Source: an uncultured Bacillota bacterium
GTDB taxonomy: Bacteria; Bacillota; Clostridia; Christensenellales; UBA1242
Length of the DNA stretch: 64,000 nucleotides
Direction of reading: 5' to 3'
NCBI GenBank assembly: GCA_947053645.1
Contig: CAMRTM010000001.1
Coordinates: 105,583-169,582, forward strand
A program made the position numbers and the translations under genes. Each line of letters begins with the position of its first letter. The stretch's first letter is position 1. Positions 34,086 through 37,512 of this stretch are shown here, piece after piece. The notes under the pieces are model-generated. The model made no database searches, was not told the origin of the DNA, and saw nothing but the letters and a program-made list of their open reading frames with translations.

Positions 34086-34182
34086 AGATTTCTCCGCTCC
34101 ACTGCGTTCCGGTCGAAATGACAGTGCCTTAGGCACTTTTTTTTACGCTACGCTGGATCCCTCCGCTGCAGTCGGGATGACA
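34086..34182 (+). repeat. REP-like composite (GAAATGAC unit + hairpin + GGGATGAC unit)
   Basis: Nearly the same composite recurs at about 55866-55938. Confidence 0.88.
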
Positions 34183-34201
34183 AATGGTGTGACTACATTA
34201 C

Positions 34202-34236
34202 AAAAAAAACAAACCGGTCTAACGGTTTGTTTTTTT
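34202..34236 (-). terminator. Intrinsic terminator after the rho-like gene
   Basis: AAAAAAAACAAACCG-GTCTAA-CGGTTTGTTTTTTT. Confidence 0.75.
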
Positions 34237-34290: not shown

Positions 34291-35469
34291 TTAATCTTCA
34301 AACTTTGATGAAATTTTTTCAAGTTCATTCTTAAAGAATAAGTCCTCACTATTATTTGACCAGTATGTCATAACTACAGTAATACTTGCTCCATTTTTAA
34401 GTGCTTTGCCTAGAGAAACCAATTTTTGGGCAATCACGACTCCTCTCTCTTTATGTCCGCTTTGCATTTCTTTTTCTACAAAACATTTATCAAGCACATT
34501 CAGCATACCTACAATATCATTTACAAACAGCACCACTTTCTCTCCCTGTGTGAGAAGTCTTTCAGCATGTGCGATTGCATCTATTACCTTACCAAAACTT
34601 ATATCATAGCCTGTGCCATATACTGTAGTCATATCCAACATATTATCTATTTCAGAAAACATGATTTGGTCTTCAAAACAGGTGTTTAGTCCAAGTGTGA
34701 TGAGTTTATAATTATTCTCTTTGCAAAAAGTCGCAAACTCTTCAAATCTATTATCTTCAAACAAATTCCCATTATATTTGAGAAGATTCCTTCTTCCACA
34801 ATACAATTTGTAATCTCCATATTGCAACCTATCTCTTGAAATCATAGGACCGTCCATAATTTCAAATCTTGGTATATATTTCCCAACTTCTACACCATTT
34901 ATTTTATATATTTTGGACATTACATAATCTTCACTTGTATTAACTCTTATTCCTTCGCAGTCAATCAAATCCCCCGCTTGAAGCCCATATACCACCGTTT
35001 CTCTTTGCGGTACAAATACCTTCTTTAGCGTTTTTCTATCTAATAAACAAGCAACTACATCATTCTTTCTGAGTATACCAGAAAAGTCTGTAGCATCCTC
35101 ATCTTCAACCTCGGTGTATACTGGAACATCTTGCGAAAAACATACAATATCTTCATATCTCAGCGGCTTTCTTTGCGTAATCATATTATCAGTGTCATCT
35201 CCGCCAGTCATCTTTGCCATGATATCTTCAAGGTTACTAAGTTTTTTAAATGGTCTACCCTTCTTGGTATGTTTTACAAGAGTTGTATCGTTATTATAAA
35301 TTCTATCTAATATAAGTTCGATTAAATCGTTTCGCTTTTTTGTCGTTGGTGATGGCACGCCCACTTCACGCCCTAATGCCCTTAGTTCAAATATTCCAAG
35401 ATTTTCTACCAGCATTTGTTTATGTTGATTTCTATCCATCTGCCTAGTCGCAAGTAAATTTATATCCAT
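34291..35469 (-). CDS. Rho termination factor homologue with degenerate ATPase domain
   Basis: Rho_N-like FELRALGREVGV...KKRNDLIELI; OB-fold-like VFVP...YGLQAGDLI; ATPase remnants AERLLTQGEKVVLFVNDI and GKALKNGASITVVMT; no Walker A. Confidence 0.8.
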   Translation of the reverse strand: MDINLLATRQMDRNQHKQMLVENLGIFELRALGREVGVPSPTTKKRNDLIELILDRIYNNDTTLVKHTKKGRPFKKLSNLEDIMAKMTGGDDTDNMITQRKPLRYEDIVCFSQDVPVYTEVEDEDATDFSGILRKNDVVACLLDRKTLKKVFVPQRETVVYGLQAGDLIDCEGIRVNTSEDYVMSKIYKINGVEVGKYIPRFEIMDGPMISRDRLQYGDYKLYCGRRNLLKYNGNLFEDNRFEEFATFCKENNYKLITLGLNTCFEDQIMFSEIDNMLDMTTVYGTGYDISFGKVIDAIAHAERLLTQGEKVVLFVNDIVGMLNVLDKCFVEKEMQSGHKERGVVIAQKLVSLGKALKNGASITVVMTYWSNNSEDLFFKNELEKISSKFED

Positions 35470-35570
35470 TTTTCGCTTCCTCCTTTCGTTTATCAACATT
35501 TTTCTCTATTTTGTTTAGTTTTTCTTTATTTTATCATTATTTTGTACAATAGTCAACTTTTTAGACAATA

Positions 35571-36458
35571 TTAGACAATATTAAATAAACTTATGATCAT
35601 TCCGCAACTTACTGCAAAAAGGTATAATAAACCAGTTATTCCTAAGTTTCTTACTATTTTTTTCTTTCCTGTAGTGAAAAGTACTATTAACCCCACACCT
35701 GCTCCAGCACAAAGTCCTGCACACATTGCTGCAAAACTTAAAACTGGAGTGCCGGCTATTATACCAGACATATATAATTCAACAAGAAAGACAGAGGCAC
35801 TGCAATTTGGAATTAGTCCTATGAGAGAGGCAATGAGAATTTGAATATAAACATTGTCTGTAAGTATTGTTCTAAAGAAATCGGTGCCAGCATAGCCAAA
35901 TATCAAATTGATAGCAAGGGTTGCAACAAACACATACAAAGCGATGATAAGTGTATGTTTTAATGCGTCCAAAAAAATATTTTTAGCACAGCAATGTCCA
36001 TGCTCATGATGATGTGGTTCTTCATATTCTTGCAACTTTTGAGGCCTTTTTATTGAAATTAGATGCCATGTAACATCCACTGCATAGCCTATTATTATCG
36101 CAAAAAGCACTTTAAAACCAAGAAGCATAAGCAGTTTTGGAATAAACTCTGGTTTTGAAATCATAAGAGGAATTGCCTCATCACTTGTTGCAATAAATAC
36201 CGCCATCAGAGTGCCAAGTGTTACAACTTTGTCATTATACAGTTTACTCATTACTGATGAAAAACCACATTGGGGAACACAACCTAAAAAAGCACCAACT
36301 AAAGGTCCAGCCTTTTTCGTGTGGTGCAAAATCTTAGAATATTTTTCATTGTTGTTGTGCGAGAAATAACCTACAAGTAGATATGCTAAATATAATATTG
36401 GAAGTGTTAACGCGGTATCTATGCAGGCATCCTTTAGCGCATCTAAAAAGATTTCCAT
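35571..36458 (-). CDS. Putative manganese/metal transporter
   Basis: GCVPQCGFS, FIATSDEAIP, His-rich loop HHHEHGHCC and GLIPNCSAS. Confidence 0.8.
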   Translation of the reverse strand: MEIFLDALKDACIDTALTLPILYLAYLLVGYFSHNNNEKYSKILHHTKKAGPLVGAFLGCVPQCGFSSVMSKLYNDKVVTLGTLMAVFIATSDEAIPLMISKPEFIPKLLMLLGFKVLFAIIIGYAVDVTWHLISIKRPQKLQEYEEPHHHEHGHCCAKNIFLDALKHTLIIALYVFVATLAINLIFGYAGTDFFRTILTDNVYIQILIASLIGLIPNCSASVFLVELYMSGIIAGTPVLSFAAMCAGLCAGAGVGLIVLFTTGKKKIVRNLGITGLLYLFAVSCGMIISLFNIV

Positions 36459-36465
36459 TTAACCT

Positions 36466-37392
36466 CTATTCTGATTTTTTATTTGCTTCGAGTGCAAGTT
36501 CCTCCATTTTCATCTGTTTTGTTCTTGGTTTTCTTTTTGGCTTTTCAATTACTGTCGTTTCAGTAGTCTTCTCTGTTACAACTTCTTTTTTGACAGTTTT
36601 TTTGCTTTCTTTTACCTCTTCAGGTTCCTTTTGAGATGCTAATTTTTCCTTTTGAAATTCACTCATTCTTTTTTCGCTTTCTTTTGGAGAGTAGAGAATA
36701 AGTGTTTGCTTATCTTGATATCCTATTCTTCCATCCATATTCGCTGAAATGATTGCTTTTCCTAACATTTCTTCTATCTCGCCTTTATTAAAGGTGGATA
36801 CTTCACTCCCATCAGCAAAGAGCGCAATATGTCCATTATTCATTGTGCCAATTCGGCTGTCATTAAGAAGATATGTGATATGTCCATCAAGCATGGAAAC
36901 AAGTTGTGCATTATTCATAATACCTGTAATTTCCCCAGTAATCATGGTGACAATTCTTGCCTTTCCACGAACAAACATTACCTGACCTTCTGTCATGGTT
37001 GCAAGTTCTGCCTTATCATCTACAAAACGAATAAACCCTCCATTCATTGTGCCAATGGTTGCTTTTCCGCGTACATAATCTATTTTGCATGAATTTATTG
37101 TCGTGATGGATGCTTTTCCTGTAACTTCAGTTATTGTACCACTTTTAAAAAGCCCTATTTTTGCCTTTCCTCCCACGGTATCAATGACAGCGTCTTCCAT
37201 CATTTGAATCTTCGCTTTGCCATTTATCTCCTTAAAGGTGCAATTAAAACTTTCAAGCACTACTACATTTCCGCCTAATGAAACATTTGTACATTTATTT
37301 AATATATGCACACCGTTTGATAAACTGAAATTTGACTCTTCATCATGGATTATAGGATCAATTACCTTTTCTTTTTTCTTAAACAATTTCAT
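36466..37392 (-). CDS. Hypothetical protein with 17-aa beta-solenoid-like repeats
   Basis: About 11 tandem 17-residue repeats (xxVxGKAxIxTMxxGxI) and a charged C-terminal tail; GGAG RBS before ATG 37392. Confidence 0.7.
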   Translation of the reverse strand: MKLFKKKEKVIDPIIHDEESNFSLSNGVHILNKCTNVSLGGNVVVLESFNCTFKEINGKAKIQMMEDAVIDTVGGKAKIGLFKSGTITEVTGKASITTINSCKIDYVRGKATIGTMNGGFIRFVDDKAELATMTEGQVMFVRGKARIVTMITGEITGIMNNAQLVSMLDGHITYLLNDSRIGTMNNGHIALFADGSEVSTFNKGEIEEMLGKAIISANMDGRIGYQDKQTLILYSPKESEKRMSEFQKEKLASQKEPEEVKESKKTVKKEVVTEKTTETTVIEKPKRKPRTKQMKMEELALEANKKSE

Positions 37393-37512
37393 TCTCTCCC
37401 CTCTTTTCCTTTCGGCGATATATCTTACTATACCATAAAAACTTGTTACTTGCAAATATTTATTCACAAATTTAAAAAATTTCTACTATATACTTTTATA
37501 ATTTAAAATTGT

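Follow-up and report, generated by a model that had tools for sequence, protein, structure and literature searches.

What can a Rho protein still do once its ATP motor has gone? The question is raised by a gene on the minus strand of a 64-kb stretch of DNA from an uncultured Bacillota bacterium (contig CAMRTM010000001.1; the whole analysed stretch is called the window here, and position numbers are those of the window), the product of which we label RhoL. By host family we mean the taxonomic family of the window's bacterium, and by order the order that contains this family. The answer reached here is that RhoL is a Rho-derived pseudo-ATPase which replaces Rho across a whole bacterial family. 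That RhoL is a motor-dead rho orthologue under selection we hold to be very probable; the best explanation as a whole, towards which we lean by a small degree, is that this orthologue works as an ATP-independent nucleic-acid-binding factor. An earlier note on this DNA, made from the letters alone, had described a Rho homologue with N-terminal and OB-like regions and a RecA-fold remnant, which had lost its ATPase. The gene and the parts of its product are as follows.

34294..35469, minus strand: RhoL coding sequence, 392 amino acids (open reading frame and translation), with the stop codon at 34291..34293
35296..35412, minus strand: Rho_N-type helix-extended-helix (HeH), LGIFELR..GVxSPTTKKRxELI, residues 20-58 (Pfam Rho_N, PF07498, matches residues 25-56, E 1.4e-4)
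35230..35262, minus strand: AT-hook-like basic motif GRPxK (KKGRPFKK) in a disordered linker, residues 70-80 (pLDDT <60)
34894..35094, minus strand: OB fold, the equivalent of the primary RNA-binding domain of Rho, with a partly degenerate binding site, residues 126-192 (five strands and a helix in the model; aligns with canonical Rho)
34294..34797, minus strand: remnant of a RecA-type domain without motor motifs, residues 225-392 (pLDDT mostly >90), ending at about residue 343 of E. coli Rho

Searches with the single sequence gave little, and recognition of the homology therefore needed a family profile: Pfam returned only Rho_N (PF07498) at 22.2 bits, below the gathering score of 24.9, NCBIfam gave no match, and phmmer against PDB sequences gave a chance match only. 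Full-length relatives numbered 88 (358-393 amino acids, identity down to 24%), and a profile built from an alignment of 43 relatives (A1) matched, among PDB sequences, Rho chains only at E ≤ 0.01 (best E 2.6e-5), the matches spanning the OB and RecA regions. When the RhoL-family profile was compared with an alignment of canonical Rho in hhalign, the two matched with 99.6% probability (E 3e-23), residues 1-392 of RhoL corresponding to residues 1-343 of E. coli Rho, and against the closest canonical Rho the family profile gave E 1e-25 along nearly the full length. The AF2 model of RhoL, computed from the 43-sequence alignment (pLDDT 83.5), contains the helices of the N-terminal domain, an OB fold of five strands and a helix and a confident alpha/beta core of RecA type. 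In a Foldseek search of the PDB with this model, all 50 of the top 50 matches were Rho (best E 5e-18, TM ~0.55-0.6), which confirmed the predicted Rho fold.

Residues on which the Rho motor depends were compared in hhalign, HMMER and MAFFT alignments, all three of which agree on the RecA part, and residue counts were taken over 81 distinct orthologues. The motor positions of Rho and their counterparts in RhoL are listed here.

34750..34788, minus strand: former Walker A loop, NLLKYNGNLFEDN, residues 228-240 (hhalign; Rho counterpart GLIVAPPKAGKT)
Rho D210, catalytic Glu E211 and Arg valve R212: N262, T263 and C264 in RhoL
Walker B D265: N317 in RhoL, the column being variable among orthologues; the invariant D318 lies opposite S266
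Sensor R269: G321 in RhoL, at a position that varies across orthologues
Q-loop (Rho K283/T286): shorter in RhoL and variable across orthologues
R-loop K326: not conserved (K in 34/81 orthologues)
Arg finger R366: absent in RhoL, the chain of which ends at about E. coli residue 343

In the hhalign pairing, RhoL N228-D239 (NLLKYNGNLFED) stands opposite G174-T185 of E. coli Rho (GLIVAPPKAGKT), the PPKAGKT core of the Rho Walker A motif being represented by YNGNLFED, with E238 opposite K184 and D239 opposite T185. The position of K184 is occupied by E in 60/81 orthologues and that of T185 by N or D in 70/81, and none of the 81 has GK[ST] in the P-loop window. Across the orthologues the E211 position holds T, L, I or S and the R212 position S or C. 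Around Walker B, LFVND of RhoL pairs with LLLDS of Rho, and the RhoL C-terminus (...KISSKFED) aligns to ...KGTGNMEL(343). What is conserved in the RecA remnant is a different set of residues: G225, R227, N228, N262, E266, D318 and T364. These comparisons support the view that RhoL is a Rho homologue that has lost its ATPase, and a protein with such residues at the motor positions cannot, as judged from the alignments, be an ATP-driven translocase. The description of the protein in the earlier note thus stood up: its domain reading is borne out by the family profile and by the structural matches, its readings of Walker A, of Walker B as FVND and of the C-terminal end agree exactly with the hhalign pairing to E. 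coli Rho, and the ATPase loss that it had proposed extends, across the 81 orthologues, to Walker A, the catalytic Glu, the Arg valve, R269 and the Q and R loops, all substituted, and to the missing Arg-finger region.

Loss of the motor has not been accompanied by decay of the gene. The ratio of nonsynonymous to synonymous substitution (dN/dS; Nei-Gojobori), calculated for 11 close orthologue pairs, was 0.04-0.12 in all of them. When the values were pooled by region, the N-terminal module gave 0.036, the OB fold 0.081 and the RecA remnant (residues 201-392, which hold the RecA domain) 0.085. Neutral decay of the orthologues, named in the earlier note as an outcome that would speak against its reading, was not seen, and the 81 orthologues share both the motor-less states and the invariant residues of the HeH and GRPxK. 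Motifs new to the RhoL orthologues (GRRN, LYEND and LNTSFED) are conserved as well, and about 20 residues are invariant. As estimated from these substitution ratios, the gene shows strong purifying selection in all three domains and is not decaying. With the parent fold kept, the catalytic residues lost and purifying selection acting, RhoL has the properties of a pseudoenzyme, here a pseudo-ATPase. Since it has been kept by strong selection after loss of the motor, the Rho scaffold must have a motor-free job in the host family.

RhoL is also the only rho-like gene that could be found in its genome (874 kb in 19 contigs, 95% complete, 35.5% GC). A PF07497 search of this genome detected no canonical rho, nor indeed RhoL, the OB fold of which is present in the model; the sole TIGR00767 match, at a different locus, was at chance level (E 0.04), with none to RhoL at E ≤ 1; and tblastn with the two closest canonical Rho proteins, which come from sister families, found the RhoL locus only. 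No canonical rho was found in 24 other genomes of the genus. Among 201 sampled genomes of the host family (58 genera, 0.7-1.6 Mb, all metagenome-assembled), none reached the TIGR00767 cut-off of 509 bits, the best score being 197 bits, and an absence repeated in 201/201 metagenome-assembled genomes cannot be an assembly artefact. Canonical rho is present in 12/16 other families of the order, with TIGR00767 scores of 515-623 bits. The A1 profile detected one gene per genome in 129/201 host-family genomes (40 genera) at E ≤ 1e-20. The RhoL family comprised 135 species loci, and 1.84 billion representatives, searched exhaustively with the profile, yielded 164 clusters at 50% identity (E ≤ 1e-30); 80 related loci all derive from uncultured Clostridia of animal and human guts, several of them labelled Christensenella, Christensenellaceae or Catabacter, and the one named member of the family is called 'hypothetical protein'.

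In a maximum-likelihood tree (IQ-TREE, LG+C20, support as SH-aLRT) all Rho forms of the host family fell into one clade (100) with a stem of length 0.94, nested within the clade of the order's canonical Rho (100) and adjoining two canonical Rho proteins (98) that share the ...SPTTKK... HeH and a GRPPK motif; the RhoL clade of the window was itself monophyletic (98). The monophyly of the fast-evolving host-family forms may be overstated through long-branch attraction; the shared lineage-specific N-terminal motifs, however, independently support the placement within the order's Rho. Gene order contributes almost nothing: set against 10 canonical rho loci from sister families, the RhoL locus had a single link, lgt lying a few genes from rho in 2/10, so that orthology rests on the tree and on the shared N-terminal motifs. 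On these phylogenetic grounds the comparison shows RhoL to be a vertical descendant (orthologue) of the lineage's own rho, not a paralogue. Canonical Rho proteins of the order are 447-691 amino acids long, and the RhoL linker with its GRP hook is the remainder of their insertion region.

The forms of Rho retained within the host family indicate how the motor went. One genus keeps ERPEE and the Arg finger and has lost the P-loop and Walker B; another has GSGKT in some species, but Lys in place of the catalytic Glu and no Arg finger; and three sampled host-family forms are already C-terminally truncated. On the tree, the parsimony minimum is 4 changes for Walker A, 3 for the catalytic Glu and 2 for the Arg finger. 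Read in this way from the alignments, motor loss is mosaic, with different genera having lost different motifs first, and in the clade holding the window the C-terminal ~75 residues, including the Arg finger, were lost as well. On the simplest view, the host family gave up motor function a single time, close to its base, and the motifs, by then useless, eroded independently.

Two side observations concern other genomes of the host family. One host-family genus (loci L155-L158 and L160) encodes still shorter Rho-like proteins that end after the last core strand (...IDLINYI, then the stop); recoding and pseudogene readings of the in-frame TAA at these loci were rejected, as the TAA is the true stop of the shorter proteins. 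In the genome designated G014, which belongs to the host genus and lacks RhoL, the only match was rejected as a RhoL orthologue and is an unrelated, 134-residue Rho_N-like small protein (L163 1928..2332, minus strand), in which a HeH like that of Rho_N is combined with a basic stretch, GRRNRH; its gene adjoins an XRE-type regulator and may belong to a mobile element.

The most conserved stretches of RhoL are the HeH and the GRPxK block: the mean frequency of the major residue is 0.72 in the HeH (residues 20-58) and 0.74 in the GRPxK block (70-80), with 0.41 in the OB fold and 0.46 in the RecA part. The HeH, the helices of which occupy residues 26-36 and 46-58 in the AF2 model, aligns with the Rho N-terminus and is invariant in 81/81 orthologues at G25, E28, L29, R30, R34, S40, P41, T42 and R46; G71, R72, P73 and K75 of GRPxK are likewise invariant, as are Q113, G225, E266 and D318. 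With its GRP core, basic flanks and predicted disorder, the linker fits an AT-hook-like pattern. The GRPxK motif occurs in 4/10 canonical Rho proteins of the order, including the two closest, in 0/13 phylum-level Rho proteins and not in E. coli Rho, and both the HeH and the GRP hook were inherited from the working Rho of sister families. Of the primary-site residues of the Rho OB fold (F62, F64, R66, D78, Y80, E108 and Y110), only the aromatic positions Y80 and Y110 and, in part, F64 are retained (F or Y at the Y80 position in 69 of the 81 sequences, Y or F at the Y110 position in 77, F at the F64 position in 56). In this region hhalign placed FxGxxR of RhoL on GFGFLR of Rho, a placement that was rejected on the evidence of HMMER against the closest canonical Rho, of MAFFT and of the modelled strand count, all of which put FxGxxR on strand 1; the HMMER/MAFFT alignment was followed because it fits the five modelled strands. 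The 40-residue Rho-N HeH of Arabidopsis RHON1 binds single-stranded RNA (ssRNA) by itself (PMC3458557), and this, together with the invariance of the HeH and GRPxK, makes nucleic-acid binding by RhoL, and RNA binding in particular, plausible.

The role that we propose can be set out in steps. Rho at the base of the host family, in uncultured gut Clostridia with genomes of 0.7-1.6 Mb, ceased to be an ATP-driven RNA translocase, and strong purifying selection still maintains the HeH and the GRPxK hook in the linker, together with two folded scaffolds, the OB fold and the RecA-type core. Because RhoL cannot translocate, it cannot terminate transcription in the way that Rho does; it would instead bind nucleic acid, most likely single-stranded RNA, and do so without ATP, probably through the module of HeH, GRP hook and OB fold, with the RecA remnant probably serving as a platform for oligomerisation or docking. 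That the retained function is ATP-independent nucleic-acid binding is a tentative suggestion, to which we give slightly less than an even chance. A number of points weigh against it. The cytosine-reading pair of Rho, R66/D78, is not kept (R66 is lost and D78 variable) and conservation in the OB fold falls short of that in the N-terminus, so that canonical rut-type recognition is unlikely; the boundary between HeH and OB fold (strands 1 and 2) is placed differently by hhalign than by HMMER and MAFFT; without the C-terminal subdomain, hexamers may form poorly or not at all; a SAP-like HeH with a GRP hook could equally mean DNA binding; the gene is missing from two or three genomes of the genus and so may be non-essential; and the Spo0A-box-like heptamers described below, which would tie the gene to a regulator, lie upstream of only 29/80 orthologues, with both boxes in the window one base off the consensus.

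Of the other explanations, the one that survives best, though we consider it unlikely, is that RhoL is a DNA-binding protein, its HeH and GRPxK engaging AT-rich duplex DNA, and that it acts as a nucleoid-associated factor or one linked to the chromosome or cell division. SAP-domain proteins, H-NS and Lsr2 are examples in which HeH/SAP domains and RGR/GRP hooks bind DNA. An invariant, basic-flanked GRPxK in a disordered linker, an AT-rich host genome (35.5% GC) and a gene order with lgt and a weakly DivIVA-like gene, conserved in most orthologous loci, are in keeping with it. The same HeH and GRP motif, however, were inherited from canonical Rho of sister families, in which the N-terminal region serves RNA loading; the link in gene order is missing in the window's own genome, where recJ-relA follow, and the DivIVA match is weak (E 0.037); and the Rho-N HeH of RHON1 binds ssRNA and not double-stranded RNA.

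A role at RNA polymerase (RNAP) is somewhat less likely again. Here RhoL would keep the contacts of Rho with RNAP, NusG or NusA and exert an allosteric effect on elongation or termination without gripping RNA. NusG is encoded in the host genome, selection on the RecA remnant (dN/dS 0.085) is in keeping with a conserved docking surface, and cryo-EM 'stand-by' complexes contain an open, catalytically inactive Rho ring on RNAP (reviewed in PMC12360218); the C-terminal subdomain, on the other hand, is missing from RhoL.

It is highly improbable that RhoL remains an NTPase by way of a non-canonical nucleotide site, an idea to which the invariant D318 beside the Walker B position, the invariant E266 and the GSGKT still present in some host-family genera lend some colour; in most sequences of the RhoL clade, however, acidic or amide residues have replaced the P-loop Lys and Thr, and nothing is left of the catalytic Glu, the Arg valve, sensor R269 or the Arg finger. 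Less probable still is a decaying rho relic or pseudogene, left open by chance in a shrinking genome. The reduced genomes (0.7-1.6 Mb), very long tree branches, mosaic erosion of motifs and the few species without the gene are what such a relic would leave, but a dN/dS of 0.04-0.12 throughout the close pairs and of 0.085 for the RecA remnant itself, intact frames in 129/201 genomes across 40 genera, the approximately 20 invariant residues with newly conserved motifs, and a promoter, ribosome-binding site and terminator of its own are not. As for the suggestion in the earlier note of a dominant-negative or regulatory subunit tuning canonical Rho in mixed hexamers, the Rho fold and retained RecA-type core could in principle pack on Rho subunits, but the check for canonical rho that the note itself called for (PF07497, TIGR00767 and tblastn) found no partner in the host genome, nor is there one in the 24 genus or 201 family genomes, each genome with the gene carries a single Rho-like one and the tree makes RhoL no paralogue, so that the suggestion fails almost entirely.

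The features flanking the coding sequence are as follows.

35479..35483, minus strand: RhoL ribosome-binding site GGAGG, 9 nt before the ATG at 35469 (sequence reading)
35528..35556, minus strand: promoter-like extended sigma-70-type site, TTGACT-17-TGnTAAAAT (consensus scan, 10/12 matches)
34196..34236, or more narrowly 34203..34236, minus strand: intrinsic terminator of A-tract, 14-bp stem and U-tract (RNA fold dG -19.5 kcal/mol, z -4.67)
35561..35567 and 35571..35577, minus strand: pair of TGTCTAA heptamers, 10 bp apart and both differing at a single base from the Spo0A box TGTCGAA, positioned 4 nt upstream of the -35 element

The open frame spans 34291..35499 on the minus strand and offers two candidate in-frame ATGs, at 35469 and 35499, of which the former is favoured because the GGAGG box lies 9 nt upstream of it and the closest orthologues begin with MDIN or MDIS. 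None of 200 shuffled sequences folded as stably as the terminator. The gene's limits, open frame, ribosome-binding site and terminator had all been read correctly at the outset, and with its predicted promoter and terminator RhoL would form a monocistronic unit in this genome. Scans with Rfam and for tRNAs found nothing significant in the intergenic regions flanking RhoL. The gap of 300 nt that separates recJ from RhoL holds a second terminator-like hairpin on the plus strand (34123..34137), AGTGCC-TTA-GGCACT with T7 behind it; no plus-strand gene ends there, and the Rfam and tRNA scans of the gap were without result.

Heptamers resembling the Spo0A box (TGTC[GT]AA or its complement) occurred 33 times upstream of 80 distinct orthologues, in 29 loci, against 4.4 +/- 1.9 in random windows of the same loci. 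The strict TGTCGAA occurred 26 times in 23/80 loci and ranked third among 630 heptamers of the same composition, outranked by just two, both of which contain the -35 element (AGTTGAC and GTTGACA, each upstream of 34/80 orthologues). When orthologues were clustered at more than 60% identity, 14/43 clusters had at least one box. Spo0A is encoded in the host genome and in 30/31 relatives. RhoL is thus possibly under Spo0A control at the transition to stationary phase or sporulation, in part of the host family. The widest version of our proposal is doubtful, namely that a host family of at least 58 genera lacks a working Rho motor and that its sole rho is now an ATP-independent factor acting on transcription or nascent RNA, by binding RNA and/or RNA polymerase with a HeH-GRP-OB module on a RecA-fold platform, perhaps switched by Spo0A at entry into sporulation. 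In addition to a full-length Spo0A (255-residue ORF, G000:C3:42667-42975), the host genus encodes up to four further Spo0A_C open reading frames (for example G000:C3:4653-4961), mostly of ~120-230 amino acids and too short for a full receiver domain, with similar frames in 17/18 other genus genomes sampled; possibly they are Spo0A paralogues without a receiver, in competition for 0A boxes.

The neighbourhood of RhoL yielded no functional clue. In most orthologous loci RhoL is preceded by a 333-residue repeat protein and an ArsP_2-like membrane protein and followed by lgt, a membrane protein and a weakly DivIVA-like protein (E 0.037), and in the host genome recJ-relA follow RhoL in place of the lgt row; the neighbouring genes are of envelope and membrane type, and their family matches are weak or absent. 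The 333-residue protein (36466..37467, minus strand), which has many GKAxI..M..G-type repeats, a Lys/Glu-rich tail and no Pfam family at E ≤ 0.01, is encoded two genes upstream of RhoL in 64/80 related loci, with the ArsP_2-like membrane protein (35571..36458) after it.

Canonical Rho (TIGR00767, NF006886; PDB 1PV4, 3ICE, 7OQH and 3L0O) is the best and sole structural match of RhoL, which descends directly from it, and the two share three parts (Rho_N HeH, OB fold and RecA-type domain) as well as the GD turn of the OB fold, aromatics at Y80 and Y110 and a GxR lead-in to the former P-loop. Unlike canonical Rho, RhoL is without Walker A, the catalytic Glu, the Arg valve, R269, the lysines of the Q- and R-loops, the Arg finger and the last ~75 residues; it also lacks R66 and D78 of the primary RNA site and is not scored by TIGR00767. 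A 2024 survey of Rho diversity in 2730 genomes distinguished four functional types of Rho, in all of which the ATPase domain is highly conserved (PMC11347177), and a motor-less class such as RhoL is not described there. A Rho_N HeH outside an ATP motor is known from RHON1 (PMC3458557) and from the cyanobacterial 'Rho-like' DUF4912 proteins with a Rho_N domain alone reported in a 2026 metagenome study (PMC13613805). In these proteins the HeH is the only Rho part, whereas RhoL also keeps the OB and RecA-type folds and is a direct rho orthologue. In the full-text literature on pseudo-ATPase, inactive or paralogous Rho, we found no published description of a motor-less Rho family.

Bacteria are otherwise described as Rho-present or Rho-absent, and RhoL represents a third state, in which the single rho orthologue is selected without its motor. 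It flags an unannotated family of at least 164 clusters at 50% identity, and homology-based calls of Rho presence or absence in genomes from gut metagenomes, and hence calls of Rho-dependent termination, need a check of the motifs. The family offers a natural system for asking what the N-terminal module and RecA scaffold of Rho do without ATP; should a motor-free role in transcription or on RNA prove true, it would be a natural separation-of-function experiment, bringing to light a conserved, motor-independent activity of the Rho scaffold which model organisms do not reveal. Its RecA part has a parallel in pseudo-ATPases and non-catalytic subunits of RecA/F1-type rings, such as the alpha subunit of F1-ATPase, in which a RecA/F1-like fold has likewise been retained structurally after the loss of catalysis. 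The F1 alpha subunit still binds nucleotide beside a catalytic partner, whereas in RhoL the P-loop is gone and there is no catalytic partner.

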